Positions 2,323 to 49,439 are shown, counted from the stretch's first letter. The stretch: DNA of 50,385 nucleotides from a virus (IMGVR_UViG_3300005253_000363:1-50385), one strand, 5' to 3'. The notes: a model not told the origin generated them from the letters alone. Made by a program: numbers and translations.

Positions 2323-2367
2323 ATGCCAGTCCTAATCGACAATTCCACTATGCAACACAAATGTTAA
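2323..2367 (+). pseudogene. Orphan N-terminal stub of the 2548 nuclease gene
   Basis: MPVLIDNSTMQHKC* versus MPILIDNSTMEKT at 2548; has its own G-rich RBS. Confidence 0.8.
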
Positions 2368-2567
2368 ATCAAACCTACGAACTTAGGATGATAGAACATA
2401 CGAATTATGTTAGGGGGGAGGTCGTACGCAACAAGCCTCAAGTGCGTGAACACGAATACAGGAAGTTTCTTGCCAAATGTGCTGACCACGCTTTTGTGGT
2501 TGGTGATTATGAGATTCAACACAAACTAATAAAGGAGCTTGAGTTAATTGCCAATTCTTATAGATAA
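2361..2567 (+). CDS. Inserted hypothetical protein
   Basis: MLNQTYELRM...; overlaps the stub stop and the nuclease start. Confidence 0.6.
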   Translation: MLNQTYELRMIEHTNYVRGEVVRNKPQVREHEYRKFLAKCADHAFVVGDYEIQHKLIKELELIANSYR

Positions 2568-3549
2568 TTCCACAATGGAAAAAACCGCTTCCTGCCACAC
2601 AGCAGTTGCAATGGAGCGTGTCCTCCATCTCAAACCCAAAGCTGGCTCCCCCCAACTCGAAGCCGGAACCGCCATGCACAAAGCATGGGAGAAATTCTTT
2701 AATGGAGAGGATGTGGAAGTCTGTATCCTGGCCCTTCGTGAACACTACTCCTCTAAGCTCCCCTATTTTGAAGACATTAAGCCTACCTATGATCTAGCTA
2801 ATCTTGAAAACCTCTTCAGGATATGGGCTTCCAAACATCCCAACAGAGAATTTCCCTGGGTTTCTCAATATGTTGAAAAAGGATTCCAAGTCAGGTTGTT
2901 TCCTGATCTGGGAGTTGACCTGATTGGAAAGATGGACACTTTCGGGGCTGATGGAACCGGGTCTTACTGTGTGGTGGACTGGAAGACTACTGGATATAAT
3001 CTGGATACCAGATGGTTTCGTAAAATTCAGAATGGTTCGCAGGTAAGTGCATACCTCTACGCAACACAGAGACTCTTTGGATCAGCTGTATGGGTGTTAT
3101 ATATTATGGCCCTCAAGATGAAAGTGGTTCCGATGTCTAATCGGACCTGTAAGGAACATGGAATGAAATACTGGAATCCTGAGAAGAAAGAGGGATGCTA
3201 CCATGAGCATGCTGACTATAAGGTGGAATCTGCATATCGGAACAAAACGCAACTCTTGGGCTGGTATCAGGATGCCCGGTTGATTACTCAGGACTATCTT
3301 CACATCCTCGAAAATGTAAAGTCTATAGAGGACATTGGCAGGGTTCCCATGCAGGGAGTATTTAATAATTCCTGCCAGGATTGCAGCTACCGGGAATTCT
3401 GTCACTCATTCAATCGAAAGCCTGAATCAGCAGAGCAGTTATTTGATTACAAACCGTGGAGCCCATTGCTTGATATGGATAAAGAGGATATCTTTTATGA
3501 AAAAGAAATTGACTATGACGGAGCTGACGGTTCTTTGCTGGTTGTATAA
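2548..3549 (+). CDS. PD-(D/E)XK exonuclease, Cas4/AddB-like with Fe-S Cys staple
   Basis: GTAMH, GKMD, VVDWKT and QVSAY motifs; N-terminal Cys plus C-terminal CxxCx5C. Confidence 0.85.
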   Translation: MPILIDNSTMEKTASCHTAVAMERVLHLKPKAGSPQLEAGTAMHKAWEKFFNGEDVEVCILALREHYSSKLPYFEDIKPTYDLANLENLFRIWASKHPNREFPWVSQYVEKGFQVRLFPDLGVDLIGKMDTFGADGTGSYCVVDWKTTGYNLDTRWFRKIQNGSQVSAYLYATQRLFGSAVWVLYIMALKMKVVPMSNRTCKEHGMKYWNPEKKEGCYHEHADYKVESAYRNKTQLLGWYQDARLITQDYLHILENVKSIEDIGRVPMQGVFNNSCQDCSYREFCHSFNRKPESAEQLFDYKPWSPLLDMDKEDIFYEKEIDYDGADGSLLVV

Positions 3550-3796
3550 GAAACCAAGAAGGCCAGATAAGATAAAACTTCCTATGATGATAACCTTGGT
3601 TTCTGTAGCCTCTCTGATTCAACGGCTGCGAAGAAAAGATTTTGTTGCTGGCAGGGTAATGGAAAAGCGCGAGATTTTCTCTTTACGGAGACCGGGAAAG
3701 ATATACAAGATTACTGCCGCTGGTAGAACGGCTGTTGAAAGCCAGATGAAATTAATGGGCCAACAATTAAGTTATTTGAGGAGTTTGGTGAGATGA
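3497..3796 (+). CDS. PadR-like winged-helix regulator
   Basis: SLIQRLRRKDFV...KIYKITAAGR; RBS GAGGA before ATG 3497. Confidence 0.65.
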   Translation: MKKKLTMTELTVLCWLYKKPRRPDKIKLPMMITLVSVASLIQRLRRKDFVAGRVMEKREIFSLRRPGKIYKITAAGRTAVESQMKLMGQQLSYLRSLVR

Positions 3797-4170
3797 ATAA
3801 AGAATCGAAAGAATCCATTGATAAGGTTGTAGAACTGGTTGATAAAAATATTGACAGGTTGGTTGAAAAGATTGCAGAGCTAGGACCGGAAGCTGCGTAT
3901 GGTTTTAATGAGATAATAGCAAAAATCTCTGTTGAGGCTTGGACAATTGTTTTTATGGTTCCTTTAGTTTGTTTTGCGTCTTGGACAGCATTTTACAAAG
4001 CAGTAAAATACGGAATAAAAAAGGACTGGGATGGAGCAAGTTTTGCTTTTGGGGTGTCTTCTGGAATTCTTTGTTTATTTTCTACAGTAGGTCTGGTTGT
4101 TGATGTTCCAAGATTTTTGGCACAAGCATTGCATCCTGTAGGCTATTTCCTGTTGGAGGTTCTTAAATGA
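3793..4170 (+). CDS. Membrane protein (2 TM)
   Basis: Two hydrophobic segments. Confidence 0.65.
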   Translation: MNKESKESIDKVVELVDKNIDRLVEKIAELGPEAAYGFNEIIAKISVEAWTIVFMVPLVCFASWTAFYKAVKYGIKKDWDGASFAFGVSSGILCLFSTVGLVVDVPRFLAQALHPVGYFLLEVLK

Positions 4171-4211
4171 AAATCCCCCTACTTCACATCCTTATAGTAG
4201 GAGCTCAGTAG
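4167..4211 (+). pseudogene. Orphan N-terminal stub of the 4377 ATPase gene
   Basis: MKIPLLHILIVGAQ* versus MKIPPLHILIVGEP at 4377; RBS GGAGG. Confidence 0.85.
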
Positions 4212-4212
4212 A

Positions 4213-4380
4213 ATGAATGACCATGATTGGTTTGGTATTATTTGTGCCTTGCTAACGTTATTTGTTGGATTTCATTTAACAGTTAACACAAATGATATCC
4301 TTTGTAATTATCTAATTGGTCCGGTCTTTTTAGGGCTGGGGTCAACTGGACTTTATATTGAATGGGAGCAAATTAGATGA
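4213..4380 (+). CDS. Inserted 55-aa membrane protein
   Basis: MNDHDWFGIICALLTLFVG...; ATGA overlap with 4377. Confidence 0.6.
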   Translation: MNDHDWFGIICALLTLFVGFHLTVNTNDILCNYLIGPVFLGLGSTGLYIEWEQIR

Positions 4381-5177
4381 AGATACCACCTTTACATATT
4401 CTTATTGTTGGAGAACCCTTCGCCGGAAAAAGTACCTTCTGCCGTACCATGCCCACCCCGAATCTTGTATTCTTCTTTGATCCTGTTGGTAAAGATGAAG
4501 CCTATCTCGAATGCGGGGATGTACAGGATTTAGACAACGGCCAACCATTAAAGACCCTTCAAGGGGCTCCAATGAAAAGAGTCTGGAGCCGTGAGAAGGA
4601 GCCTAAACTGCTCTTTCAGGTGGAATACTATCATGATGGGGAATGGGTTGAAGATCCAATAAAGGGAGGGTTCAAGCCTACTCCCGTAGCCTACGAGCAA
4701 TTTTGCAAGAGACTTATCAACATAGACCAAGAGTTTGATTACTGGAATACAATCAGTCTTGACTCTTACTCCGGAGCTGAACTTTCTGCCATGCTCCGTG
4801 AAAAATTTAAGCTTAATCCAGGAACAAAATTCGATCTCCGGCATTGGGGTGGCGGGGCTAGATCGGAACTTGAGATGGCGATATTCGCAAGGTTCGGGAT
4901 GTTTCCAATGAATGTTGTAGTGATCTGCCACGAGAAAGTATACCAGAACGATAAGACCGGAGAAATTATCCGGCAGGCAGATACCTACGGAAATCTTGGT
5001 AACACATTTGGCAGAGGCTTCTCCGAAATGTATCGTATGGTTAATATCCCGAATGTAGGTCGCCAGTTACAAACCCAGAAAGACGCAATGTGGAACGCAA
5101 ATTCCAAATATGCTCCAAATCCCTGTGAGCCTAGTTATCAAGCGGTAATCGCTTCAATCACCAATCAAGGAGAATAA
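4377..5177 (+). CDS. P-loop ATPase, Sak4/AAA_24-like recombinase
   Basis: Walker A GEPFAGKS, ISLDS Walker B, NVVVICHE; lies between exonuclease and SSB. Confidence 0.8.
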   Translation: MKIPPLHILIVGEPFAGKSTFCRTMPTPNLVFFFDPVGKDEAYLECGDVQDLDNGQPLKTLQGAPMKRVWSREKEPKLLFQVEYYHDGEWVEDPIKGGFKPTPVAYEQFCKRLINIDQEFDYWNTISLDSYSGAELSAMLREKFKLNPGTKFDLRHWGGGARSELEMAIFARFGMFPMNVVVICHEKVYQNDKTGEIIRQADTYGNLGNTFGRGFSEMYRMVNIPNVGRQLQTQKDAMWNANSKYAPNPCEPSYQAVIASITNQGE

Positions 5178-5178
5178 A

Positions 5179-5787
5179 ATGGCAAAGATAGGTACTGTAC
5201 CAAATGTAGTAAATGATCCATCAACACAGATTGATCCGGGGGCTTATGTTTTTAATTGTGAGTCCGTAAAAGAGGGAGACTACGAAGGACAGTTGATCTA
5301 TGACGCAGTATTCCGAGCCCAGCAACCGGTCACTCATCTAGGGCAGACTCATTACGAGCGTTGGTTTATCGGGAATGAGGAAGACCCTGAAGCTCTTCTA
5401 CCGGATACTTGGACAAAGAGAGCCGGACACATGAAAAAATGCTGCGAAGCTATGGGCGTTCCTTTTCTTGGGCAGAATCCTGATATGATCGTTCAGCAGA
5501 TGGTCGGTAAGCAGGTCTGTGCAAAGGTTGTTCATAAAGCAAGCAAAGACGGGAAGTATACCAATGCCCGTGTCTCTCAGTGGGGCCAACCTGGAACCAT
5601 GACCCCGGAAGTCATTGGATCGGATAATGGGCAGCCTCCTGTCCAAGCTCCGGCAGTAGCGGCTCCAATGCCTGCTGGAACACCGGGAGTAGGGACTCCA
5701 GTAGCTCCTCAGACTGGAATGCCTGCAAGCCCAGCTGGAGGTCAATCGGCACCTGCGGGCCCTCCTCTGCCTCCTCAGTACCAGTAA
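5179..5787 (+). CDS. Single-stranded DNA-binding protein (DUF669-like) with Pro/Ala-rich tail
   Basis: IDPGAY start, beta-rich core, MVGKQVCAKV...YTNARV; position after Sak4-like gene. Confidence 0.65.
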   Translation: MAKIGTVPNVVNDPSTQIDPGAYVFNCESVKEGDYEGQLIYDAVFRAQQPVTHLGQTHYERWFIGNEEDPEALLPDTWTKRAGHMKKCCEAMGVPFLGQNPDMIVQQMVGKQVCAKVVHKASKDGKYTNARVSQWGQPGTMTPEVIGSDNGQPPVQAPAVAAPMPAGTPGVGTPVAPQTGMPASPAGGQSAPAGPPLPPQYQ

Positions 5788-5924: not shown

Positions 5925-5925
5925 A

Positions 5926-9178: not shown

Positions 9179-9561
9179 CTGACAACGAAGTCACTGAGGC
9201 TTACTTTCGGGCGATGGGGTGGAAACGCTTCAAAGATCGCAGAGATGATGGTTCAGGGCATGGTCGTAATGAAAACGTAACTGGCTGGGTAGACTCAGAT
9301 GGGGAGGAATGGTATGACTTACCAAACATCCTCGAATCCAACTCCGCCTATATCCGTGAGGTTGCTGATGTGATGGAAGGAGAGGGATGTAGACTATTCA
9401 TTTGGCAACCAGCAACTGATCCTTACTCAGTTGTATGGTCTATACCTGATCTAAGAGAAGGGTGCAATAAAGTAGTGGGACGGGAACCAGTCATCAAAAA
9501 CAACACTTCCCGCGCCGCTGTTATTGCCGCGACTCGGTACTTTGAGGAGAAATCAAAATGA
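9175..9561 (+). CDS. Phage ABA-sandwich-like protein (paralog 3)
   Basis: MTDNEV...AMGW...LPN...SRAAVIAA. Confidence 0.6.
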   Translation: MTDNEVTEAYFRAMGWKRFKDRRDDGSGHGRNENVTGWVDSDGEEWYDLPNILESNSAYIREVADVMEGEGCRLFIWQPATDPYSVVWSIPDLREGCNKVVGREPVIKNNTSRAAVIAATRYFEEKSK

Positions 9562-9683
9562 AATGGGAATACATGCTTACCAGTAATTGGGGCCTCGATG
9601 AAATGAATAAACTAGGTCAAGAGAGATGGGAGTTCATAGCAACAATTAATAACTCCTTAGTTTGGAAGCGAGAGATAAAATGA
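9558..9683 (+). CDS. DUF4177-like micro-protein
   Basis: MKWEY...MNKLGQERWEFI...WKR signature. Confidence 0.6.
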   Translation: MKWEYMLTSNWGLDEMNKLGQERWEFIATINNSLVWKREIK

Positions 9684-10242: not shown

Positions 10243-12144
10243 ATGATCCAATCCAATAAACAAGTCCCCGACTGGGGAGATGCTTCATCCCGTCTTATTC
10301 TTATCGGGGAAGCTCCAGGCCGTGAAGAGGAACAACGTGGTCAGCCCTTTGTAGGAGCTTCAGGGCTCAAGCTCAATGAGTGGTGGGCCAGAGCAGGACT
10401 TCATCGTGGGATGTTTTACATTACAAATGTCCTTCCATCCCGTCCGTGGAATAATGACATCTCCAAGGTTCCTCAAGAGGAGTTGGATTATTGGGCAGAG
10501 CATCTGAGGAAGAAGATTAGTGGACTCCCGGAGCCGTTTATTCTGATTCCAACCGGGAAGACTGCACTCAGAGCACTCTTAGGAAAGGATAATATCTCAG
10601 ACCTCAGAGGATCTATTCTCTCTTATGAAGACGAGGGTAGGACAATCAAAGTGATTCCTACAATTCATCCAGCGGCGACTCTCAGAGCAAAGAAGTTCGA
10701 GGCCAGATGTATCTATGACTGGATGAGGATTGCTTATGAGGGAGGGTTTCGGGAGGTCAGACTGCCGAAAAGGGACCATATTATAGCTCCTCCAATGGAT
10801 CAGTGTGAGAACTACGCATATAGGGTCTTAGAGCTCCAAAAACCTCTGGCTGTAGATATTGAGACCCACCCTCAAGAAGGAATTACCTGTGTAGGGTTTG
10901 CAACTGGACCTCAGCAGTCGTTCACCATTCCCTTCGGAGTCAAACGCTCTATCCACCTTACCGGCAACAAACCGAAAGAAGTAAAGGAACGAGAGACGAA
11001 GAAAGCCAATGACCGCATCTCCAAGGCAGTCTTTCACAAGGAGCATCCCCTCGAAAGTTACCATACAAAGAAGAGAGAGCTCAATTCAATAGAGAAATGG
11101 AAGATCCAGAAGAGACCTCTCGTAGTAATCTGCCGGATTGTAGAGGAGTATGAGAAGGAGCATAAGCTGCCCTCTCCAGATTGGGAATCAGATGGCGGGT
11201 ATTTTATTACAGTAGGCTACTGGGAAACGGAGGAACAGAATGAGAAAGCTAAAGATATTATCAGATCGCTTATTGAAGGAGAGAATCCACTCATCTTCCA
11301 CAATGGATTCTATGATACCTACTGGCTCAAGGACTGGCTCGGTTGTGATATACAGAACTGGCACTGGGACACCCTTGCTATGCACCATTGTCTTGTCCCC
11401 AATGAGGAACACTCACTTGACTTCCTCGCATCAGTCTACACCTCAGAACCATTCTGGAAGAAAGAAACCAAAGAAGCAGAGGCCAGTGGAAAGTATTACA
11501 AGAAGCAGGAAGTCCTCTGGAAATACAACGGGAAAGATGTAGCGGTTACTTTTGAGCTTTACGAGAAATTCCTGAAGATGCTCCAGGATTCTGGGCGGAT
11601 GGATTTCTACTGGAAGCATTATTATAACTTGTATGAGCCTCTGCTGGAGCTATCTTTGACTGGAATCAAGACTGACATTGAAAAGAGGAGTCAGCGGCGG
11701 GTGCAGTTTCAGGAGGAGCTTCAAGTTCTCCTCAAAGAAATCGAAGAACTGGCAGAGAAGCCTCTGCATGGAGCGAAGGCCCTTTCCAGTAAAAAGGTTC
11801 AAGAGTATCTCTATGAAGACCTGAAACTCCCCAAGCAGAAACGATACCGACCAGAAAAGAAAGAGAAAACTTCTACGGCTGATGAACTGGCAATTAGGAC
11901 TCTGATGCTCAGGTTTCCTGAGAAGTTGAATGTTGTAGGAGAGAAGATTCTTAGATGCCAGAGACTGAATAAATTACTTGGGTATCTGAAAGAAGCAAAG
12001 ATCGACCCTGATGGAAGATTGAGAAGTCAGTATAAATTCAATACGACTACGGGAAGATTGGCGAGTGGAAGTAATCCTTACGGAACTGGCGATAATGCCC
12101 AGAACGTTGACCGGGAGCTTCGAAACATTTATGTTGCTGGCTGA
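10243..12144 (+). CDS. polA: DNA polymerase A, N-terminal part: family-4 uracil-DNA glycosylase, 3'-5' exonuclease, thumb and first palm segment
   Basis: UDG motifs GEAPG, PFVGASG, YITNV, HPAA; Exo motifs DIET, HNGFYD, YNGKD; PolA TTGRLAS...NAQNV...RNIY; stops just before motif A. Confidence 0.92.
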   Translation: MIQSNKQVPDWGDASSRLILIGEAPGREEEQRGQPFVGASGLKLNEWWARAGLHRGMFYITNVLPSRPWNNDISKVPQEELDYWAEHLRKKISGLPEPFILIPTGKTALRALLGKDNISDLRGSILSYEDEGRTIKVIPTIHPAATLRAKKFEARCIYDWMRIAYEGGFREVRLPKRDHIIAPPMDQCENYAYRVLELQKPLAVDIETHPQEGITCVGFATGPQQSFTIPFGVKRSIHLTGNKPKEVKERETKKANDRISKAVFHKEHPLESYHTKKRELNSIEKWKIQKRPLVVICRIVEEYEKEHKLPSPDWESDGGYFITVGYWETEEQNEKAKDIIRSLIEGENPLIFHNGFYDTYWLKDWLGCDIQNWHWDTLAMHHCLVPNEEHSLDFLASVYTSEPFWKKETKEAEASGKYYKKQEVLWKYNGKDVAVTFELYEKFLKMLQDSGRMDFYWKHYYNLYEPLLELSLTGIKTDIEKRSQRRVQFQEELQVLLKEIEELAEKPLHGAKALSSKKVQEYLYEDLKLPKQKRYRPEKKEKTSTADELAIRTLMLRFPEKLNVVGEKILRCQRLNKLLGYLKEAKIDPDGRLRSQYKFNTTTGRLASGSNPYGTGDNAQNVDRELRNIYVAG

Positions 12145-12616
12145 TAAACAAATCAAAGAATTAATCCTGAATCATAACTTGTTGACTCCCTACGAACTGG
12201 AGAAGAAAGTCTTTGAGGGAGTCTCCTATGGACTGTCGAGTTGTAGTTATGATTTGAGGCTTAGTGAGCTGGAACTTCTTTGGGGATCACCTCTAAGTCT
12301 CAAGATCGAGCCGGGTGGGTTTCGTCTAGGTTGTACCCTCGAAACAATTAAAATGCCGCATAATATAGTAGGGCTCATCAAGGACAAATCTACATGGGCC
12401 AGAAGGGGATTGTCTGTATTCAATACTTTAATTGATCCAGGCTTCGAGGGACAGATTACTCTTGAGTTGAAGAATCAAGGAACAGAGCTTCTTAAGATGC
12501 CCTATGGTATTGGTATCGCCCAAATCATATTCTTCGAGTGCGGGGAAGTGGAGAATCCTTACAGCGGAAAATATCAGGGCCAGACTGGAATTACTGGGCC
12601 GAAGGAGGAGAAATGA
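12131..12616 (+). CDS. dcd: dCTP deaminase (trimeric dUTPase fold)
   Basis: SYGLSSCSYDLRL, KSTWARRGL, IDPGFEGQITLE, IAQIIF and YSGKYQGQ motifs. Confidence 0.9.
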   Translation: MLLADKQIKELILNHNLLTPYELEKKVFEGVSYGLSSCSYDLRLSELELLWGSPLSLKIEPGGFRLGCTLETIKMPHNIVGLIKDKSTWARRGLSVFNTLIDPGFEGQITLELKNQGTELLKMPYGIGIAQIIFFECGEVENPYSGKYQGQTGITGPKEEK

Positions 12617-12619
12617 AAA

Positions 12620-12865
12620 ATGAGTAGAAAAACTGTTTTTATTTATGTTATTGAGGTTAAACTCCCGTGGAAAAGAACTTATCAAGTGCCTGCTGGTCCT
12701 CAAGGTATATTTTGTACCGACTACAAAACTGCATTAAAAGAACTTGAAGAATACCGAATAGACCTTGATCCTGAAAAGGATTGTCCTAAGTCTGAATATA
12801 GGATTGTTATTTATGCGGCTGTAAGAGACCTTTACGGGATACTTGCAAAAGAGGCTGTGAAATGA
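12620..12865 (+). CDS. Hypothetical protein
   Basis: Strong RBS; coupled to neighbours. Confidence 0.6.
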   Translation: MSRKTVFIYVIEVKLPWKRTYQVPAGPQGIFCTDYKTALKELEEYRIDLDPEKDCPKSEYRIVIYAAVRDLYGILAKEAVK

Positions 12866-13044
12866 AACCCTTCGACATCGGACTTACAATTTTATTCAGC
12901 TTTGGACTAGGTATTGCAATAGGTCACATACAGGAAGCTCAGTGGGCTCAAATTGATATCAATGCTCTCAAAGCTCAGGTGGAGAAGTTGCATTGTGTTG
13001 GAGAAATCACTTATCCTGAAATGTTGGAGGAGGGGAGGAAATGA
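12862..13044 (+). CDS. Small membrane-anchored protein
   Basis: N-terminal hydrophobic helix. Confidence 0.55.
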   Translation: MKPFDIGLTILFSFGLGIAIGHIQEAQWAQIDINALKAQVEKLHCVGEITYPEMLEEGRK

Positions 13045-13211
13045 GGAATACAAATTCGCCAGTCTGGGTTGTTGAAACTGTTTATCGTAATATGCTCCAT
13101 ACGAGAGAGGACGCAAGGAAATTTCAACGTTATAGAATTAAGAATCCAGAAGCCTTTCCAAAGAAAGAGAATCAACACAGAGTTATTATAAGAAAGGCAA
13201 AAATGAAATGA
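13041..13211 (+). CDS. 56-aa basic hypothetical protein
   Basis: MRNTNSPVWVVE...KAKMK*; ATGA overlap with 13208. Confidence 0.55.
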   Translation: MRNTNSPVWVVETVYRNMLHTREDARKFQRYRIKNPEAFPKKENQHRVIIRKAKMK

Positions 13212-13987
13212 CTCCCTTCCTCATGGAACTCGACCTCTCCCAGGTAGAATCACGCATCTGTTATATGCTCACTCGTGATCCTGTCCTAGTCAAGCAGGCT
13301 CAAAGCCAGCCTTGGGAGTTTAACGGGCATACAGAAACTGCTCGGATGATTTATGGAGTAGAAGACCCTACTCCCCTCCAGTACTATCTAGGCAAGAAAA
13401 CATCTCATGGAGTCATGAGAGGAATGCAGGGAAAGAAACTGGCAGACGAATTATTAAAAGAAGGCACCGTAATGGCAGTCACTGAATGTGATTGGCTGAT
13501 TCAACGATTCTTCGAGACGAAACCAGCAATCCGGGATGTGTACTTTGTTGAAGTCCGTCAGCAGGTTTGGGATCACCGGAAACTTACGAATTCTTTTGGC
13601 CGTGTTATCGAGTGGCCTTTTGATAGATTCGGGGACGATCTCTATCGAGAAGCTTACTCGTGGCCTCTTCAATCGGATGCTGCTGACCTTATCAATCAAC
13701 AGGGATTGATTCCAATGCATCATTGGTTGAAGCAGGGTAAAATGTATACCAAGATCCTGGCTCAGGTTCATGATTCACTGCTGTTCAATACCTGTATCGA
13801 GGAAGCCTATGATGTAGCACTGGCCTTTAAAGGATGGATTGCAGAGCCTATTGAGTATCCGGCTGGGCCACTTTCGGTGCCGGTGACTTTTAAGATTGGC
13901 AAGACTTGGGCTGGGGATCATGAGTGGAAGAGACTACCGAGTAGGGAAGAATTTAACGAGAAAATAAAAGAGATTATAGGAGGTTAG
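13208..13987 (+). CDS. polA: DNA polymerase A, C-terminal catalytic part (motifs A, B, C)
   Basis: DLSQVESR (A), KKTSHGVMRG (divergent B), NSFGR, QSDAAD, QVHDS (C). Confidence 0.92.
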   Translation: MTPFLMELDLSQVESRICYMLTRDPVLVKQAQSQPWEFNGHTETARMIYGVEDPTPLQYYLGKKTSHGVMRGMQGKKLADELLKEGTVMAVTECDWLIQRFFETKPAIRDVYFVEVRQQVWDHRKLTNSFGRVIEWPFDRFGDDLYREAYSWPLQSDAADLINQQGLIPMHHWLKQGKMYTKILAQVHDSLLFNTCIEEAYDVALAFKGWIAEPIEYPAGPLSVPVTFKIGKTWAGDHEWKRLPSREEFNEKIKEIIGG

Positions 13988-13988: not shown

Positions 13989-14237
13989 ATGTGTTATTTA
14001 GAGCAAGTTGTAAAGAGTCTTGAAGAAGATTTTTCTAGTTGGGATGGTTCAACCAACAAACGGTATTTGTTGCATAAGGAATCAAGTATTCGTTTATATA
14101 TTGATGGAGGAGAGGAGAATATTTTTATAACAGAGCCTCTAACTGTAAACCCTTCGAATATAGAGAAGAAAGCTCTTTGGGGGGCTGTCCAAAAATGCTG
14201 CGAGAATATCCTTCTAGCACACTGTAAAAAGTTATGA
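13989..14237 (+). CDS. Hypothetical protein
   Basis: GGAGG RBS; AT-rich ORF. Confidence 0.6.
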   Translation: MCYLEQVVKSLEEDFSSWDGSTNKRYLLHKESSIRLYIDGGEENIFITEPLTVNPSNIEKKALWGAVQKCCENILLAHCKKL

Positions 14238-37618: not shown

Positions 37619-38295
37619 TAATGACCTCCTTTGACGAGTTGAAGATAGTCATCCATTGTATTGATGTGAAGGTCATCTCTGGAGCGGATTCTGGCTTGCT
37701 GTTCGATATAGTCCACTGGGGCTCCTGAGTTTCTAAGGTAATCCAAGTAGGCCTGGGTTTCATCCGAGGCCTTGGAGACAAATGTCTGCTTGGGGAGGAT
37801 ACTGACTGCTGAGGCCAAAGCGTCGATGATGTCTTTAATGGTGGACATGGGGAAGTCCAAGACTTCTTCCAGAAGGGAATACTGGGATTTCTTGACAAAG
37901 AGGCGGCCTTGGGAGACTACCGGCTGAAGATGGGTTCTGATCCTGAAGTCCTTGTTCATGGAGGTAGGGTGGACTATGGACTGGGAAGGAAGGTTGATTC
38001 CTTTTTCGTAAGCATCAAGAGAGACTGAATCCGCAAAGAGTCCTTGCTGGGCGTTGCCTTCAATGCCGAAGACTTCAGGCTTGTACTTGGCGTTGAATTC
38101 GTAGATTTTCTGGTAGATCTTTTGGGTGGCACAGCGTTCAGCCCATGTTTCACGGACAAAGATTCGGTTGGCTGCATCGGAGGAGACTGCTACGATTGCA
38201 GATCGGGCTTTGGTTTTTTGTTTGTTCTCCTTGCCTCCGGCTGGATCTAGGAAGCAGACTGTGGAGATGAGGTAGTCTCTTGAGAGCTTCTGCAT
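37618..38295 (-). CDS. terL: Terminase large subunit, C-terminal RNase H-like nuclease part
   Basis: FLDPA, FGIEGNAQQ, KDFRI, DFP...KDIIDALA motifs. Confidence 0.88.
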   Translation of the reverse strand: MQKLSRDYLISTVCFLDPAGGKENKQKTKARSAIVAVSSDAANRIFVRETWAERCATQKIYQKIYEFNAKYKPEVFGIEGNAQQGLFADSVSLDAYEKGINLPSQSIVHPTSMNKDFRIRTHLQPVVSQGRLFVKKSQYSLLEEVLDFPMSTIKDIIDALASAVSILPKQTFVSKASDETQAYLDYLRNSGAPVDYIEQQARIRSRDDLHINTMDDYLQLVKGGH

Positions 38296-38507
38296 GCTTC
38301 AATCTGTTCCCAACGAACTCTGGGAACTGGACCTCCTTCAGGGACGTTGGGAAACTGAGGACTGGAGAGTGTGATGTGAATAGCGTTGAATTCGTGGACA
38401 AGAGCCCCCGAACCGACTCCTACGATTTCTACTCCTTCTGGCAAGTCTAGGATCTCTTTTAAGTCTTTATAAGTAAGACGAAGATAGCCGACTTTATCCT
38501 GATTCAT
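38247..38507 (-). CDS. Hypothetical protein
   Basis: LDLPEG...FPNVPEG; RBS. Confidence 0.6.
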   Translation of the reverse strand: MNQDKVGYLRLTYKDLKEILDLPEGVEIVGVGSGALVHEFNAIHITLSSPQFPNVPEGGPVPRVRWEQIEACRSSQETTSSPQSAS

Positions 38508-39069
38508 GTTCCTTCTCCTCAGTTAAGATTGTATAAAGTTTCCTTGTTGCTTTGATGTCCTCCAGTGCATCATGGGCATCGAACTCGATGTCGAAGTGGT
38601 GGCAGACAGTTTCCAGCTTTTGATTGGGAAGACTGGTATCTGTCTCGATCAGGTATCGAGCGAGGAATGATTGGACATCCAGCTTGGCCCACATGATGTA
38701 AGCTCCGTAGTAGTCGTTCTTGTTTTTCTTGAAGGCTGCTCGGAGGAACTTGTCATCGAAGCCTACATTGTAGCCTGCAAGCACGAACTTGTCTCTGGAA
38801 TCGAATCGGTCTATGTGGCGTTGCAGAGCAGTCTCGAATTTGTAGATTCCCTCGGATTGGGATTGGAAACTCTCGAAGTCCTTTTCGGAGAACTTGTTCT
38901 TCATGAGAGCTTCTGGAGAAATGACTGAATCGGGACCGGGCTTCATGAAGATTTCGGATTCTTCCATCATCTGGCCGTCGATTTCGATTAAATAACCGAT
39001 TTGGATGATATCGTTTGTGAAGGCGTTTATGCCGGAGGTTTCTGTGTCGAGCCAGAGGATTTTTCCCAT
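38494..39069 (-). CDS. DEDDh 3'-5' exonuclease (DnaQ-like)
   Basis: LDTETSG, GYNVGFD, AHDALED. Confidence 0.9.
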   Translation of the reverse strand: MGKILWLDTETSGINAFTNDIIQIGYLIEIDGQMMEESEIFMKPGPDSVISPEALMKNKFSEKDFESFQSQSEGIYKFETALQRHIDRFDSRDKFVLAGYNVGFDDKFLRAAFKKNKNDYYGAYIMWAKLDVQSFLARYLIETDTSLPNQKLETVCHHFDIEFDAHDALEDIKATRKLYTILTEEKEHESG

Positions 39070-39368
39070 TAGATTTTAGTTTCGTCCAGTTTATGTTCTC
39101 CACACCAATCACTAACAAACACTACAGGCCAACCATTCAAGGTAGGCGCATTTCGGCGACAACGACCAATATTGGATTCAGTGGTTCGTACAGACTCGGC
39201 TTCTTCCACAGGAACAATTTTTCCCGGCCTCGCTTCTACAATCTTACTAAAACTCCCTTTAACGATATAAACTGGGGGTTGCTTCAAAACAAACCACATG
39301 CAAGTCTTACATTTATTTTTTCCTTCGTGATGATTCCAGTTATCTTCTGACATATTATTTCTCCTCAA
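39069..39368 (-). CDS. Cys-rich hypothetical protein
   Basis: CKTC...GRCRRNAP...WP...DWCGEH. Confidence 0.65.
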   Translation of the reverse strand: MRRNNMSEDNWNHHEGKNKCKTCMWFVLKQPPVYIVKGSFSKIVEARPGKIVPVEEAESVRTTESNIGRCRRNAPTLNGWPVVFVSDWCGEHKLDETKI

Positions 39369-39652
39369 AAACCGAAAAGTTTTTTTAGTCTGATATAATA
39401 TTCAGACTCGTCCATAAATTCAGTGTTTGTTCTAAATCTAACAATACGATCAAACTCAAATGATTTACTTTTAAGCCTTTCAAGTTCCAAGATAACTTCT
39501 TGAGTCTTGTTTTTCTTGCCGAGCAGTTCAGTTGTCCTTCCGGTTATTTCTGAAGACCTTAAACCAAGATATTGTTTCAAATCGTCAAATGAGGTCATGT
39601 AAATTTCATCCATGAGTTTAAGATTGATTAACAAAACTTCCCAGTTATCCAA
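39365..39652 (-). CDS. Hypothetical protein (AT-rich)
   Basis: ORF overlapping the TerL-N stop. Confidence 0.55.
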   Translation of the reverse strand: MDNWEVLLINLKLMDEIYMTSFDDLKQYLGLRSSEITGRTTELLGKKNKTQEVILELERLKSKSFEFDRIVRFRTNTEFMDESEYYIRLKKLFGF

Positions 39653-40824
39653 GCATCTCGTTTGAATTCTATGTCAGCCCAAGAAGCATATTGTTTGTAC
39701 TCAGGCTTCTTCGGTTCTTCCTTCTCAGGTTCAGCCATCATCAAGGCTACCATACTCTGATCCCTTTCGTCATCCTCAAAAATGAAATCATTGCCTACTT
39801 CTTCGTAGAAGCGGAGATCGGATTCCCGGAAATCTGTGAGTCCTGCGTCGCGGGGATTGTTCAGGTAGAGTAGGGAGAACAGGGGGCCGAGGGATTCTTT
39901 GAGATTGTGAACGGCCTGCTTGGAGAATTCTTCGGGAAAGATGATCTTCCCATTCTCGATTAGAGAGCGTTTGTAGACGGATACTGTAGGATCATTCTCG
40001 ATCATTTCTGCGTAGAGATCATTAGTTGCCCAGTGTGTCCCGACTGTAAACTCTTGTGATATATCCAAGTCCTCCATCATAGGCCGGGAAACTCTTTGCC
40101 ACTCTTTAGCAGTTTCCATTACGGATTCAGAGCCTCGTGCTTCAAGGGAGATGAGATCGTCGTTGATGAGGTCAGTGAAATGACCGCCTGTGATGGCACC
40201 GCCTACACCGATTCCCTGCATAGTAGGATCGGACTGCTCAAATGACAGGTCTCTAGGAAGAAAGAACATAGAACTGTTCCATTTCCGGGCTTGTCTTCGA
40301 GGAGCATCCCAGCACTTGTCGGGCCATAAGACACGGAGTAATGCGTTTCTCTCGAAGTGCTGCTGAATCCATTGAATATGCTTGGAAGCATGATGCTCTG
40401 TCTCGCAGGATAAAAGGATTTTGCATTCCAGTCCGTTATGTCCGGGCCAATAGACATTGCTTTCCTTGGGTTGTATAAACTTATGGATTGGAAGTCCTTT
40501 GGAGACTATCGTGGACTTGAACGTATCTCGTGGAAGCATGATGAGCTTTCTGTACGGGGGAATCTTCTGGATAAACTCACAGACTTCACGGTGGAGGTGA
40601 TTTGTTAAACGGGTGAGGCCAAGAATAGCTTTGCAGAAGAAGTGGAGGTCTGTTTCAGCTTTCTTTTTGACAAGTTTTAGAAGGCGGCCATTAGGGTCTG
40701 TGGTTCCTGCTTGACGGGGTTCCCCGTTTTTCTGGATGACGAGTTCCCGGTCCAGGAGTTGTTTTGGGGGTGGGGGGATGTATTGTGGGGATTCCTTTGA
40801 AAGTGTATCCAGTATGTCCATCAA
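39628..40824 (-). CDS. terL: Terminase large subunit, N-terminal ATPase part
   Basis: MLPRDTFKST (Walker A), ITGGHFTDLINDD (Walker B), GTHW..NDLY, FPEEF, YLNNP. Confidence 0.92.
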   Translation of the reverse strand: MMDILDTLSKESPQYIPPPPKQLLDRELVIQKNGEPRQAGTTDPNGRLLKLVKKKAETDLHFFCKAILGLTRLTNHLHREVCEFIQKIPPYRKLIMLPRDTFKSTIVSKGLPIHKFIQPKESNVYWPGHNGLECKILLSCETEHHASKHIQWIQQHFERNALLRVLWPDKCWDAPRRQARKWNSSMFFLPRDLSFEQSDPTMQGIGVGGAITGGHFTDLINDDLISLEARGSESVMETAKEWQRVSRPMMEDLDISQEFTVGTHWATNDLYAEMIENDPTVSVYKRSLIENGKIIFPEEFSKQAVHNLKESLGPLFSLLYLNNPRDAGLTDFRESDLRFYEEVGNDFIFEDDERDQSMVALMMAEPEKEEPKKPEYKQYASWADIEFKRDAWITGKFC

Positions 40825-42624: not shown

Positions 42625-42977
42625 TCATAAATCTCCTTGTGAAGGTCGTAGAAAGCCCTTTCAAGCAATACTACACATTTTTCTTCGTCAGATACAATTC
42701 CTTTTGCTTTCCTTGGCCTCAATGCCGCAGTATGGCAATGCAATAGCTCATGGATTACTGCCCTTTCAAATTCCTCTTCTTTTTCATGTTCTGGTATTTC
42801 GTAAAATCGAGGGTCTTTTATTTTCATGTGTGAATTAAGATAATCCGTCTGAACCGAAGAGAACCCCCAGCCCTCGATAGCCTTATCCCCGACCAACGCG
42901 CAGGAAATATCCCAATGATCGAGCTTCAACTTCTTCTGCCAGTACCGGACTTTGCGTTCAAGTTGTTTTTGGTTCAT
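42621..42977 (-). CDS. HExxH zincin-like protein
   Basis: VIHELLHCH and WQKKLKLDHW. Confidence 0.65.
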   Translation of the reverse strand: MNQKQLERKVRYWQKKLKLDHWDISCALVGDKAIEGWGFSSVQTDYLNSHMKIKDPRFYEIPEHEKEEEFERAVIHELLHCHTAALRPRKAKGIVSDEEKCVVLLERAFYDLHKEIYE

Positions 42978-43204
42978 AGAGAAATCCCCCAGTCATCATA
43001 AAGATCTTTAACAGGTTTACAATCTACAGGCATCACCAGATAAACGTATCCCTCTCTAATGCCATCAGAGTGAACCCAATAATTCTGATTGCATCTGACA
43101 ACATCACCCCTATTTTCGTTAACCGCCTTTAAAATAGTCCAAGACATTTTCAGGCCGCCCCTAAGTTTTTTTAACCTTTGTCGAATACTTTTGAATACTT
43201 GCAT
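42974..43204 (-). CDS. Hypothetical protein
   Basis: Coupled ORF. Confidence 0.5.
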   Translation of the reverse strand: MQVFKSIRQRLKKLRGGLKMSWTILKAVNENRGDVVRCNQNYWVHSDGIREGYVYLVMPVDCKPVKDLYDDWGISL

Positions 43205-43233
43205 TTAAGACTCCAAAGTAAAGTTTGTTTAAT

Positions 43234-43479
43234 TTAAGCTGCTTTTGGTTCATCGGGAGGTTCTCCTGGCCCAAGCCGCCCCATTCCTTGAATTAAATCA
43301 AGATTTGGATTGGTCGGATCATGAAAGGGTTTCTCAGTAAGATCTTGGGGTACATAGGGAACTTCACGTTGATACAGTTCACTACGGCACCACGGGCAGT
43401 ATTTAATGTGGATCATCCCAATCGCTTCGTGGAAGAGGTTTCCAATTGCTTCCCAGTCTTTACAGCTACAAGAATTCAT
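43234..43479 (-). CDS. Small Zn-binding protein
   Basis: CSC...YCPWC. Confidence 0.55.
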   Translation of the reverse strand: MNSCSCKDWEAIGNLFHEAIGMIHIKYCPWCRSELYQREVPYVPQDLTEKPFHDPTNPNLDLIQGMGRLGPGEPPDEPKAA

Positions 43480-47556: not shown

Positions 47557-47570
47557 TATCTTTTAATATT

Positions 47571-47801
47571 ATGAGAACAACATACCTTGATCCAGACTAT
47601 AGAAAAGACCCGACCAGTGATTTCTTTTGTTGCCGCTGTCAACGGTCACTCAATGGCAAGGCTCACAGATGGGCATTTTTTGAGCGTGATATTTGGGATC
47701 AAGTGATTCATCCAGACGACAAACTTGATGAGCATGAAGGCTTCCCTATTGGCTTAGACTGTGCAAGACAGATTGGAATTGAGTCTACTGTAAAATTGTG
47801 A
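47571..47801 (+). CDS. Early Zn-binding hypothetical protein
   Basis: CCRC...PIGLDCA. Confidence 0.65.
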   Translation: MRTTYLDPDYRKDPTSDFFCCRCQRSLNGKAHRWAFFERDIWDQVIHPDDKLDEHEGFPIGLDCARQIGIESTVKL

Positions 47802-47827
47802 TTATCAATTGAGAATAAGGGGATAAG

Positions 47828-47989
47828 ATGAAATATCAAATTAGGCCGCATTGGTCGGGGGTTGGTTATGAGGTATTTGACTCTGAAAACCTGCACCATG
47901 CCGCCCTGTACATTAGCTCAAAAAGTTGCTGTGAAGCGGTCGCCAGAGAATGCAATAAGGGAGATTTTTCGAGCCTGTCGCCAAATTAA
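47828..47989 (+). CDS. 53-aa early protein
   Basis: AAGGGG RBS; MKYQIRPHWSGVGYEV... Confidence 0.5.
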   Translation: MKYQIRPHWSGVGYEVFDSENLHHAALYISSKSCCEAVARECNKGDFSSLSPN

Positions 47990-48073
47990 CCCCCCGCCGG
48001 AAGGCTTCAATTCTGGAGCCTTCTAACAGGTGATTAAGCCTGATTATCAATTGAACCAAAGGGAGATCAAGAC

Positions 48074-48253
48074 ATGACAACCGCTGAACGAGCTAGAATA
48101 AAAAGGGAGCACGAAGAGGAACGCATTAATCTATGGTATGTGGATGGTATGCAGGACCGAGTAAGAAAAGCATTTCCTGGCTTGCCCCATAATCTCCAGT
48201 TACTCAAATATATTGAGAAGCTGGAAAAGGAATTGTTTGGGGAAACCCTATAA
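48074..48253 (+). CDS. 59-aa early protein
   Basis: GGGAG RBS; MTTAERARIKREHEEE... Confidence 0.55.
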   Translation: MTTAERARIKREHEEERINLWYVDGMQDRVRKAFPGLPHNLQLLKYIEKLEKELFGETL

Positions 48254-48503
48254 AGTTGACCCCAGCACCACAACGCGAACAAAAGGCGAAGAGATTATCA
48301 ATTGAACCGAGAGGTGTTAAAATGAATCACCATGTGATCGCATTTTATAAACATAGAGCAAAATATTGGTATAAGCAGTATCTCCTCGTCCATGAAAAGT
48401 GGTATTGCCTGAATAATTATTAACCCCCCACCGGAGCTTGTCAGGGTCCGCCCTGGTCGGTTTCTGCGGAGAGTTAATCACCATCAAAAGGGAGTATAAA
48501 ATC

Positions 48504-48737
48504 ATGGGAATTTACACAAAAGAGACTGAAATGTTTTCACCCAATGAAGCCTTCGAGGATGCGATCAGGGAAGGGTTGCTGGTTCCTGACAAGGACGCGG
48601 AAAACTCTGCTTATAAATTCATGTACATGTTTTCCAAGCGTGGCAATCCTACTGTTTTTGAATCCGGTACTAAGGGCTTTCACTACCATCATTATTTTAA
48701 GCATTATCATACGCGGGAATATGTCAATACAAAATAA
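48504..48737 (+). CDS. Early hypothetical protein
   Basis: GGGAG RBS; AFEDAI...YKFMYM...FKH...TREY. Confidence 0.6.
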   Translation: MGIYTKETEMFSPNEAFEDAIREGLLVPDKDAENSAYKFMYMFSKRGNPTVFESGTKGFHYHHYFKHYHTREYVNTK

Positions 48738-48794
48738 ATTCCTTATCCACCTGTCAATGTATTCTTACATCTTTACATGTCCTAGAGGCATATC

Positions 48795-49016
48795 ATGAAA
48801 ACCATAATACTATTAATTGGCCTTTCCATTCCCTCTTGGGAAGCACTTCCTAACCGCATGGTATTAATCAACGGTGTTTCATATCACGCGATCCGGGAAA
48901 TCAATTACTGTAAGCGGATGCACTTCAAAAAGTACGATGAAATCATTTTGAAAGCTGGAAAGGTGTGTTACCGGATTGACCGGATGGGGTTCCGTGTTGA
49001 TCTATTGGAGCATTAA
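48795..49016 (+). CDS. Early hypothetical protein
   Basis: ORF with GAGG RBS. Confidence 0.5.
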   Translation: MKTIILLIGLSIPSWEALPNRMVLINGVSYHAIREINYCKRMHFKKYDEIILKAGKVCYRIDRMGFRVDLLEH

Positions 49017-49036
49017 CTTTTGAAAGGGGTAAGGTT

Positions 49037-49243
49037 ATGACAATCACGGTACCTAAATTCAGTGACGCGCACAAGTTAAGAGAAGCAGTCAAGCATTATG
49101 GCCAAACTTGTGAGGCATTCGGCTTTTCCTTAGCTGATAAATGGATGGATATTATTCCAGAGAAAAGGAACAAGATGGACCAGGCTTTAAATGAATTGAA
49201 CGCACTCATTTCAAAGTATGTCGATAACGTGGTAAGGGGGTAA
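49037..49243 (+). CDS. Early hypothetical protein
   Basis: RBS; flanked by a 15-bp repeat. Confidence 0.6.
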   Translation: MTITVPKFSDAHKLREAVKHYGQTCEAFGFSLADKWMDIIPEKRNKMDQALNELNALISKYVDNVVRG

Positions 49244-49247
49244 GGTT

Positions 49248-49439
49248 ATGAAATTTAAACTCGAAGTCGGCCTTAATGATGCTGGTATGCAATTGGATTG
49301 CGGTAGTTTGGACCGTCCAGCACTTTGCGAGGTTCTGGAAAATTGCGAGATCGCTATTATGATGGACCTTGAAAAAGGGAATTTGAAAGACTCAAACGGC
49401 AACACAATCGGCAAGTGGGAGATTATTGAGGATGTTTAA
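49248..49439 (+). CDS. Early hypothetical protein
   Basis: MKFKLE...LKDSNGNTIGKW. Confidence 0.65.
   Translation: MKFKLEVGLNDAGMQLDCGSLDRPALCEVLENCEIAIMMDLEKGNLKDSNGNTIGKWEIIEDV

Follow-up and report, generated by a model that had tools for sequence, protein, structure and literature searches.

Stubs of two recombination genes in an uncultured marine-sediment phage as probable scars of recombination among diverged relatives

The window analysed here, a stretch of 50,385 nt (IMGVR_UViG_3300005253_000363:1-50385), comes from an uncultured, marine-sediment, apparently lytic, podovirus-like clade of phages, and a near-identity search of it against 50,697 phage records gave no match. Small genes are lodged in this DNA at translation starts and at domain joints, and their neighbours remain intact. 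The locus thus raises the question of whether a dedicated system inserts such genes, as the initial annotation had proposed, or whether recombination among related phages can account for them.

The most informative junctions are two short reading frames in front of recombination genes. Stub 1 (2323..2367, plus strand) consists of ATG, 13 codons and TAA, reads MPVLIDNSTMQHKC up to its stop, and is a synonymously diverged copy of the first 10 codons of a nuclease gene, the live start of which is a TTG at 2548, followed by PILIDNSTMEK. The start of the stub is overlapped by 13 nt by the 3' end of a 54-aa gene (2171..2335, plus strand). Stub 2 (4167..4211, plus strand) consists of ATG, 13 codons and TAG, reads MKIPLLHILIVGAQ, and is a synonymously diverged copy of the first 12 codons of a Sak4-like gene that starts at 4377 with MKIPPLHILIVGEP; its ATG is overlapped by the TGA stop of a 125-aa membrane-protein gene (3793..4170, plus strand; ATGA). 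Between each 14-codon stub and its live gene start lies one small gene. The first, a 68-aa gene of no known family (2361..2567, plus strand) in a frame open from 2310, has an ATG that overlaps the stub-1 stop, which comes 2 nt after it, and a 3' end that overlaps the nuclease start by 20 nt; a Protein Atlas look-up gave a top score of 0.78 and no lead. The second, a 55-aa membrane-protein gene of no known family (4213..4380, plus strand), begins 1 nt after the stub-2 stop, takes its GGAG ribosome site from the stub-2 codons VGA, and shares an ATGA overlap with the Sak4-like start.

The first 12 residues of 102 called genes were compared with the 1500 nt upstream of each, the downstream region serving as control. 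Stubs 1 and 2 scored 8/11 and 10/11, the remaining 100 genes 3-6 and the downstream control at most 7, and in a gene-call-free scan the same two stubs were again the outliers. The recoded stubs described at the outset are therefore present, and above chance in the 102-gene scan. A corresponding scan of C-termini in eight genomes (the final 10 residues against the 600 nt that follow, threshold 7/10) gave no downstream match in the window, where the sole match fell in the upstream control, and one 7/10 match in G002, a relative. Both strong stubs are exactly 14 codons long, lie less than 2 kb apart and belong to recombination genes. Pure chance does not predict this closeness and equal length, and detection bias towards conserved N-termini accounts for only part of the clustering. 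The N-termini concerned are indeed conserved, as M[PT][IV]LIDNSTM for the nuclease in the relatives G001 and L008, and as M.IPPLHIL among Sak4 homologues.

Compared with the live starts, stub 1 has 7 differences in 30 nt and stub 2 has 11 in 36 nt, each with a single amino-acid change. Under random substitution, so few amino-acid changes have a probability of 2e-3 for stub 1 and arose in 0 of 200,000 trials for stub 2 (P < 5e-6). Since the differences are almost exclusively synonymous, both copies of each start diverged while they were real N-termini. The stubs come from diverged (foreign) alleles, and not from in-place duplication at insertion, and the displaced nuclease allele had the 54-aa gene as its native neighbour on the left.

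Diverged relatives do co-occur with the window phage. G001, with a genome of 52 kb, is found in the same sediment samples as window-type genomes, and in runs X1 and X2 there are contigs that agree with the window from 2552 rightwards and have G001's sequence upstream. The search for relatives with flanking sequence yielded only G001, in two instances, G002, a 1.5-kb contig and a G001-like contig. The parental arrangements would be the 54-aa gene directly followed by a stub-1-spelled nuclease gene, and the 125-aa gene directly followed by a stub-2-spelled Sak4 gene; neither was found among the three clade genomes and the short contigs.

We consider it probable (about 0.62) that the stubs, duplicated starts and clean junctions are scars of unequal recombination among co-occurring diverged relatives, filtered by translational coupling. 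One side of the crossover would be anchored by homology in a conserved gene, and the other would join out of register, a process known as unequal recombination or as homology-facilitated illegitimate recombination. From the left parent would come the upstream gene and the 10-12 initial codons of that parent's nuclease or Sak4 allele; from the right parent, the small gene and a full-length allele of its own. With genes tightly packed by stop/start overlaps, and ribosome sites placed inside the upstream gene, the only survivors would be recombinants in which no neighbour has lost its ribosome site, start or stop; owing to this selection on intact signals, the junctions would appear non-disruptive. 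We infer both this crossover geometry and the identity of the acting enzymes. Recombination of this kind would resemble the phage mosaicism described for lambda Red and Rad52-like recombinases (passages of PMC2327257 and PMC3945230), in that diverged relatives exchange DNA, novel joints survive mainly at gene boundaries and a phage-encoded annealase module is present. Unlike those cases, the present clade is uncultured and known from sequence only, and it displays legible allelic stubs of 10-12 codons, which are rarely preserved.

Not all junctions need have the same history. A 62-aa gene (41692-41880, minus strand) is accompanied by an exact 19-nt repeat (41694-41712 and 41882-41900) that supplies the upstream ORF and the 62-aa gene alike with LKRRKK and a stop, and holds the next ribosome site as well. 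Likewise, a 68-aa gene (49037-49243, plus strand) is accompanied by the exact 15-nt repeat GGGGTAAGGTTATGA (49026-49040 and 49237-49251). The duplicated ribosome-site and start regions that had been noted at these places are thus real, with exactly one gene inside each pair, and exact direct repeats of at least 13 nt at 100-700 nt spacing are enriched overall (7 observed, 0.80 expected from the distant-repeat density). Within each of these two pairs the copies are identical in DNA, and both pairs may have arisen in another way, more recently or locally. Local duplication at insertion, by target-site duplication or by slippage or template switching, with subsequent drift, could fit both of them, as well as the AAAATGA repeats described below. 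As an account of the locus it is nevertheless unlikely: the two strong stubs, given their synonymous bias, cannot have drifted from identical duplicates, the repeat lengths of 2-36 nt are unlike a fixed target-site duplication, integrase and reverse transcriptase were not found in the window, and purine-rich RBS-ATGA junctions recur by convergence, the same type of duplicated junction being present around single genes in the unrelated phage CVT22. A third, weaker stub (42957..43258, minus strand; at 43253) takes the form of a 26-nt repeat with 81% identity (43233-43258 and 42957-42982) that encloses a 76-aa gene (42974-43204). The upstream copy represents the native 3' terminus of the gene at 43234-43479; in G001, this gene and the downstream start share 20 nt.

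The proposal that accretion is non-disruptive holds well: small genes are gained or lost exactly at gene boundaries, with intact neighbours, and empty sites exist for at least four cassettes, at 42978-43253, 39070-39626, 13989-14237 and 9558-9683, in G001 or in variant contigs. A 41-aa cassette (9558..9683, plus strand), which overlaps each neighbour by ATGA and has AAAATGA repeated at its two junctions, is missing from a variant contig of run X1. An 82-aa cassette (13989..14237, plus strand), which has its own GGAGG, adds two residues to the C-terminal PolA part and is without a flanking repeat, is missing both in G001 and in a run X1 contig of depth 230. Small genes are in high flux, with matches in G001 for 21 of the 63 window ORFs shorter than 100 aa, against 38 of the 48 ORFs of at least 100 aa. 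Downstream starts are kept by stop/start overlap, as had been suggested, but this is not special to insertions, since 55 of 100 same-strand neighbour pairs in the window genome overlap in this way.

The module that the initial annotation had named as the candidate agent of the insertions is present in the order nuclease, then Sak4-like ATPase and OB-fold protein, and recurs in G001 and G002. The PD-(D/E)XK (Cas4-like) exonuclease gene (2548..3549, plus strand; TTG start) matches PF12705 PDDEXK_1 (E 7.4e-16, 59.3 bits against a cut-off of 22) and phrog_1218 exonuclease (E 7.5e-15). Its PD-(D/E)XK core is thus secure, and the likeness to Cas4 is a resemblance only: its 26 bits against Cas4 proper (TIGR00372 equivalog) fall short of the cut-off of 65, and the match is confined to a Cys-rich stretch at the C-terminus (248-286). 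The RecA-core-only ATPase (4377..5177, plus strand) agrees with its earlier assignment, matching phrog_124 'Sak4-like ssDNA annealing protein' (E 1.8e-8) and carrying the Walker A motif GEPFAGKS; PF13479 AAA_24 scores 21.1 bits, below the cut-off of 27, and is found in 9 of 14 Sak4 homologues according to precomputed annotation. The third protein (5179..5787, plus strand), claimed as an SSB, has no Pfam, PHROG, NCBIfam or PDB-sequence match, to SSB families or otherwise, and is assigned by fold only. Its AlphaFold2 model, of moderate confidence (mean pLDDT 63, core blocks 73-88), predicts an OB fold like that of ssDNA-binding proteins; Foldseek ranks PrgE of pCF10 first (E 5.9e-6, probability 1.0) and lists many SSBs behind it (E 0.03-0.1). 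Going by passages of PMC2327257, PMC3945230 and PMC5928155, phage recombinases are established agents of recombination between diverged sequences, and a role of the trio in short-homology recombination is plausible from the literature.

A dedicated system, in which these three proteins insert genes at starts and domain joints through diverged homologies of 15-35 bp, would draw on the presence and adjacency of the module genes, on the location of both strong stubs on two of them, and on the divergence tolerance that passages of PMC5928155 and PMC5499656 report for annealases of this kind. It would also draw on the rarity of stubs elsewhere: the window has 2 in 50 kb, and about 0.89 Mb of other phage DNA (216,671 nt and 670,653 nt) has at most 2 stub-like matches. 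With G001 and G002 included, the comparison DNA amounts to about 0.99 Mb, the expectation for the window to about 0.10 and P to about 0.005 by Poisson arithmetic, and the window genome is therefore unusual. However, G001 and G002 (102,070 nt) have no stub despite possessing the same module, and so the stubs do not track it. The flanking repeats are 2, 4, 7, 15, 19 and 26 nt long (the last at 81% identity), or 30-36 nt when synonymously diverged, and several junctions have only 2-7 nt, which is no usable homology. Such heterogeneity argues against one enzyme-defined mechanism. The stubs are, moreover, allelic and not made at insertion, and CVT22, which is unrelated, has similar duplicated junctions. 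A single accretion system with one mechanism is thus not upheld, and a dedicated role of the module of this kind seems improbable.

A more specific idea is that, in this clade, the conserved first 10-12 codons of core genes, with their ribosome sites, are preferred recombination anchors, that the stub ORFs are kept as translated units that hand ribosomes to the new gene, and that the phage's own exonuclease, Sak4-like and SSB-like proteins catalyse the joints. This fits the sequence because the stub stops lie 1-2 nt from the ATGs of the inserts and because stub 2 supplies the GGAG. If it were true, a new gene would be expressed at once from resident signals, and the resident gene would restart by stop/start overlap; we regard it as quite unlikely.

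It is similarly doubtful that the stubs are relics of homing-endonuclease cassettes that landed a few codons into a gene, brought a respelled start and have since lost or replaced the endonuclease. A dead original start together with a differently spelled live start, a trait of such cassettes, is seen at stubs 1 and 2, and the clade member G001 carries an HNH gene, at a different locus. Against this, a six-frame search of the window found no HNH, HNH_3, GIY-YIG or LAGLIDADG_3 domain, and the inserted genes (55-76 aa, one membrane protein) have no Pfam or PHROG family match. The same search found no tyrosine integrase (PF00589) and no RVT_1 (PF00078), in agreement with the earlier statement that integrase, homing endonuclease and reverse transcriptase are lacking. 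Insertion by a transposon or integrase was rejected on the absence of PF00589 and PF00078 and on flanking repeats of 2-36 nt, which do not form a fixed-length target duplication.

That the contig is a chimeric assembly of co-occurring strains is very improbable even with window-type and G001-type genomes in the same samples, as stub 2 and its insert are spanned with 0-4 differences by independent contigs from three runs (X1 record 2, X2 record 11, X3 record 17) and strain chimerism does not yield a diverged in-frame duplicate of 30-36 nt. The contig layout gives 15 of 76 joints, neither strong stub site being among these, and no contig that bridges stub 1 is among the pieces listed, which weighs neither for nor against the stubs.

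The two essential genes described as split at domain boundaries by four-gene blocks, polA and terL, have profile-matched parts on both sides of the gap. The N-terminal part of PolA (10243..12144, plus strand) comprises UDG, 3'-5' exonuclease and positions 6-128 of Pfam DNA_pol_A, and the C-terminal part (13208..13987, plus strand), with positions 154-380, begins 8 residues before DLSQVESR; the pieces abut without extra sequence. The gap (12131..13211, plus strand) holds a dCTP deaminase-like gene (12131-12616) and genes at 12620-12865, 12862-13044 and 13041-13211. The TerL nuclease part (37618..38295, minus strand; phrog_38 positions 549-713) and ATPase part (39628..40824, minus strand; positions 266-539) are separated by a gap (38247..39598, minus strand) with genes at 38247-38507, 38494-39069 (DEDDh exonuclease), 39069-39353 and 39365-39598, the last two of which G001 lacks. 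Only 5 phage records matched the ATPase part, all at 31% identity or less.

Both splits are ancestral to the clade and serve as long-lived cargo sites with changing cargo. An intron or intein origin was rejected: Rfam gave no match at the gathering threshold in the whole window and none at E <= 1 in the two gaps, the PolA and TerL pieces contain no intein domain, and the gaps contain no endonuclease or intron. Separately translated enzyme parts with genes between them are known from Aeh1 nrdA, split by mobE, and from split-intein fractured genes (PMC3045599 and PMC2677866, respectively), and from the LUZ24-type split DNA polymerase (AM910650; PMC3890496), for which the record annotates parts I-III with eight genes between I and II. 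Unlike in these cases, the gaps in the window are free of endonuclease, intron and intein, and the cargo varies among clade members. The jumbo-phage terL genes that passages of PMC12880540 describe are split by group I introns, whereas the TerL of the window has no intron and no splicing to rejoin the halves. The fissions of PolA and TerL are old, and under the preferred reading of recombination among relatives the gap between two separately translated ORFs acts like any gene boundary and gathers cargo.

In the early region (47800..48435, plus strand), the repeated motif reported upstream of ribosome sites (47800-48305) could be confirmed as GATTATCAATTGA, a 13-nt, palindrome-containing element just 5' of the ribosome site. 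It occurs in three copies only (47800, 48042 and 48293), spaced 242 and 251 nt, with one small unrelated gene after each; G001 has one degenerate copy at the homologous place. A 3' motif, TTAACCCCCCRCCGGA, is present twice (47986 and 48420; 0.02 expected). One of four folded intergenic stretches forms a strong hairpin (around 47999-48024; -25.9 kcal/mol, z -2.4), and a consensus scan of 46400-50385 detected 14 promoter-like sites (shuffles, 9.5 +/- 3.5), the motif coinciding clearly with none of them. PeSL-type cassettes are marked by a conserved motif next to single ORFans in a variable early region, and the cassettes here share this trait. A strong sigma-70 promoter and a terminator stem-loop likewise characterise that type, for which the window offers the promoter-like sites and the single hairpin just described. 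In the known examples (PMC2839356, PMC4122927), short conserved regulatory motifs flank small ORFans in an early hyperplastic region, and in the window, too, a hairpin follows at least one small gene. The difference lies in the three-copy, palindrome-containing 13-nt element before the ribosome site, known from its sequence alone.

The locus brings no new type of mobile system to light. Its interest lies in the joints themselves: in phages, mosaic joints are usually invisible, erased by selection and drift, and here three can still be read in the nucleotide sequence. In two of these, the synonymous spelling is a direct sign that the partners were diverged alleles of one gene, and candidate partners are present in the same samples. 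The clade, with its intron-free two-piece TerL and PolA and with gaps that serve as cargo sites, should be useful for packaging-motor research. Finally, the window and its relatives are a natural data set on how lytic phages in the environment acquire small genes while their tightly coupled operons stay intact.

Two short, dead copies of gene starts set the upstream neighbourhoods of two genes of the window apart from all others. Stub 1 (2323-2367, MPVLIDNSTMQHKC*) copies the start of the PD-(D/E)XK nuclease gene (2548, PILIDNSTMEK), and stub 2 (4167-4211, MKIPLLHILIVGAQ*) that of the Sak4-like ATPase gene (4377, MKIPPLHILIVGEP). A single small gene separates each stub from its full gene. When the first 12 residues of each of the 102 called genes were compared with the 1500 nt upstream, stubs 1 and 2 scored 8 and 10 of 11, the remaining 100 genes scored 3-6, and the downstream control reached a maximum of 7. 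The same two outliers emerged from a scan that is free of gene calls.

Stub 1 differs from the live nuclease start in 7 of 30 nt, five of them at third codon positions, and stub 2 from the live Sak4-like start in 11 of 36 nt, nine of them at third positions, with one amino-acid change in either case. For stub 1, equal numbers of randomly placed substitutions give so few amino-acid changes with P = 2e-3; for stub 2, they did so in none of 200,000 trials. Therefore, both copies diverged as working N-termini, and the stubs are thus the starts of foreign, diverged alleles. Duplication in place with subsequent decay is ruled out by the synonymous bias of the substitutions. The N-terminal peptides of the stubs are conserved in the clade relative G001, in a relative with 66% identity and in Sak4 homologues. 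As an allelic stub is recognisable only where the N-terminus is conserved, detection is biased towards such genes, and this conservation explains the bias.

The simplest origin of such a stub would be a single crossover that joined two collinear but diverged genomes out of register, a geometry that we infer. The left parent would contribute sequence up to codon 10-12 of its own allele, and the right parent from just upstream of the small gene preceding its own allele, and selection for intact translational coupling would filter the recombinants. The left context is native at both stubs: a 54-aa gene shares 13 nt with stub 1, and a 125-aa gene has an ATGA overlap with stub 2. The similarity of stub 2 stops exactly at GGAG, now the ribosome site of the inserted gene. 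A joint at this point would fit microhomology. The stub region is found in four marine-sediment runs, three of them from one study. The population evidence consists of assembled contigs rather than reads, and contigs of three runs, aligned on 1-16000, span stub 2 and at least part of its insert, with 0-4 differences, which opposes an assembly artefact. The 15 joints listed, of 76 in this alignment, lie away from the two strong stubs. Contigs in the sediment runs X1 and X2 agree with the window from 2552 to the right and have the upstream sequence of G001 on their left; diverged partners therefore share samples.

Ordinary mosaic recombination of this kind still leaves unexplained why the two stubs lie less than 2 kb apart, both on recombination genes, both exactly 14 codons long and both ending at the start of the insert. 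Because of this pairing, a role of the stubs in start capture or translational coupling retains a modest probability.

The features listed in the initial annotation are all present, namely the stubs, the exact 19-nt and 15-nt repeats, the three-copy motif and the PolA and TerL splits. To these we add stub 3 (MNQKQL at 43253, - strand), which echoes the start of gene 42621-42977 and is separated from it by a 76-aa gene (42974-43204). In DNA it is a 26-nt repeat of 81% identity, a weaker case than stubs 1 and 2. G001 has no 76-aa gene at this site, and there the 3' end of the upstream gene and the start of the downstream gene have 20 nt in common. The window carries two copies of this overlap, one as the end of the upstream gene and one as the start of the downstream gene. 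An insertion that spares two overlapping neighbours must therefore bring a second copy of the overlap.

The proposal that one accretion system made all these features is not supported, in view of the heterogeneity of the junctions (repeats of 2-36 nt), the foreign alleles in the stubs, and gene overlap as the norm of this genome. The exact 19-nt and 15-nt repeats bracket one gene each. There are 7 exact direct repeats of at least 13 nt spaced 100-700 nt apart, where the density of distant repeats predicts 0.80, and the top five are the sites of the initial annotation. The motif GATTATCAATTGA occurs in three copies, each immediately 5' of the ribosome site of a small, unrelated early gene, the 3' motif TTAACCCCCCRCCGGA has 2 copies versus 0.02 expected, and a strong hairpin lies 3' of one of the early motif-bearing genes. 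Two genes at 39070-39626 are placed exactly between the stop of the TerL ATPase part and the exonuclease start, which are 1 nt apart in G001, and the ends of this insert share TAAT only. An 82-aa gene (13989-14237), missing from G001 and from a contig of run X1 at depth 230, comes with a GGAGG of its own and gives the C-terminal PolA part a new stop and two further residues; no flanking repeat was found at its junctions. A 41-aa gene (9558-9683), missing from a variant contig, has AAAATGA on either side. The flanking repeats thus measure 2, 4, 7, 15, 19 and 26 nt (the last imperfect), or 30-36 nt where synonymously diverged, and such a spread does not point to a single enzyme-defined mechanism.

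At 41146-42058, a replacement with joints inside genes distinguishes the window from G001. A Lys/Arg-rich 60-aa ORF (41880-42062, - strand), starting with MPH, shares about 85 nt with the 3' end of a 215-aa gene (41977-42624, - strand) that is read in a different frame. An ORF of G001 also starts with MPH but has a different body, whose C-terminus matches the window gene 40996-41364. The shared start and the different body therefore place a replacement joint inside genes at 41880-42624.

Stop/start overlaps occur in 55 of 100 same-strand neighbour pairs, 24 of them of the 4-nt ATGA type, so that surviving insertions would look "non-disruptive" whatever the mechanism. Small genes turn over fast in this clade: matches in G001 exist for 21 of the 63 window ORFs shorter than 100 aa versus 38 of 48 of at least 100 aa, and in the second relative, G002, for 0 of 63 versus 17 of 48.

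G001 (52,257 nt) has blastn matches spanning 31,414 window bases, mainly at 74-83% identity. G002 (49,813 nt, with terminal repeats) is more distant, with 32% identity in Sak4 and 40% in the ATPase part of TerL. A search of sequence collections added a 1.5-kb contig with the nuclease gene at 66% identity and one G001-like contig. A near-identity search found no near relative of the window among 50,697 deposited phage records, and the ATPase part of its TerL has matches in only five deposited records, each at 31% identity or less. The window (50,385 nt, estimated completeness 97%) carries replication genes at 1-15653 (+ strand), structural, packaging and many small genes at 15699-46646 (- strand), and small early genes from 47571 (+ strand). 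No tRNA or Rfam family was found in it. Among the small accessory genes are a DNA methyltransferase (286-834; phrog_757, E 2e-71) and a protein matching phrog_335 "phosphatase" (44542-45000, - strand; E 1e-33). A gene-poor stretch of about 0.9 kb separates the divergent - and + gene blocks and contains a 53-nt repeat in three copies and a 47-nt repeat in two (46577-46766 and 47035-47156). At their ends, the two families are reverse complementary to each other, and the region is a possible origin or divergent promoter.

The PolA split falls between Pfam positions 128 and 154, 8 residues ahead of DLSQVESR, which we take to be motif A of family-A polymerases. TerL is split between positions 539 and 549 of the phrog_38 profile. 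The position of the TerL break is shared by the window, G001, G002 and the deposited record MW202554 (about residues 330-347 of an unsplit reference TerL), and MW202554 is annotated with two "terminase large subunit" genes and one small gene between them. PolA is also split in all four. The cargo differs between the genomes. The window has four genes in each gap. G001 has two genes in its TerL gap and five ORFs in its PolA gap, and G002 has three unrelated small ORFs in the former and four ORFs, none matching dCTP deaminase, in the latter. In MW202554, one gene lies in the TerL gap and the PolA gap is empty. No intron-like RNA was found in either gap at E <= 1, and no intein or endonuclease domain in any tested piece or cargo gene. 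The fissions are therefore old and the pieces translated separately, and the gaps act as ordinary gene boundaries that gather cargo. The deposited record of phage LUZ24 likewise has a split family-A polymerase with genes between the parts; the literature searched on split terminases contained intron-split cases only. In the window, the N-terminal PolA part (10243-12144) begins with a family-4-type uracil-DNA glycosylase domain (PF03167, 88 bits) fused to exonuclease and polymerase, and a dCTP deaminase-like gene lies in the PolA gap. The TerL gap of the window and of G001 includes a DEDDh (RNase T-type) exonuclease (38494-39069, - strand; PF00929, 60.6 bits; phrog_192 "DNA polymerase exonuclease subunit").

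The recombination trio is real in outline. The nuclease is a PD-(D/E)XK exonuclease (PF12705, 59 bits) that is Cas4-like in its Cys-rich C-terminus only (TIGR00372, 26 bits versus a cut-off of 65). The ATPase has a Sak4-like PHROG match (E 1.8e-8) and 14 homologues only, itself excluded, among 5.8 billion proteins. The product of the neighbouring gene matched no sequence family; its AlphaFold2 model, built from 7 sequences with a mean pLDDT of 63, matches the OB-fold ssDNA-binding protein PrgE (E 5.9e-6) and then many SSBs. That the trio may have made the junctions is a proposal drawn solely from the literature on relaxed annealing. The suggested tie between stub frequency and this module fails within the clade, since neither G001 nor G002 has a stub of at least 8 of 11, despite the same nuclease, Sak4-like and OB-fold genes. 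G001 (locus L007) has an HNH endonuclease gene (43710-43832, - strand; 23.5 bits, above the cut-off) in a 146-aa open frame, and no other homing-type gene was seen in the clade; the window has only about 110 nt at the equivalent place.

Five named phages (216,671 nt) have no stub of the type of stubs 1 and 2, and their hits are a tandem paralogue pair, a repeat protein and origin iterons. Among 80 IMG/VR loci (670,653 nt), sampled by a generic ribosome-site pattern, 99 upstream hits reached at least 8 of 11. Nearly all are low-complexity or DNA-level tandem repeats, and at most two loci (L087 and L044), both with near-identical DNA repeats seen on both strands, look stub-like. At most 2 stub-like hits per about 0.99 Mb of comparison DNA correspond to about 0.10 expected per 50 kb, and P(>=2) is about 0.005, a simple Poisson estimate from a small, biased control set. 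The window is unusual in its number of stubs, and this excess does not follow the presence of the recombination module. Duplicated ribosome-site/ATGA junctions are also found in an unrelated phage, Citrobacter phage CVT22 (locus L018), where they flank single genes in the same pattern and account for all 4 near repeats. Exact repeats of 13-18 nt bracket single small genes there at 37320/37544, 30345/30556/30820 and 42391/42894.

Taken together, the data are best read as the product of ordinary mosaic recombination among diverged relatives that occur together, with selection for intact translational coupling as the filter, and of two ancient fissions serving as sites for cargo.
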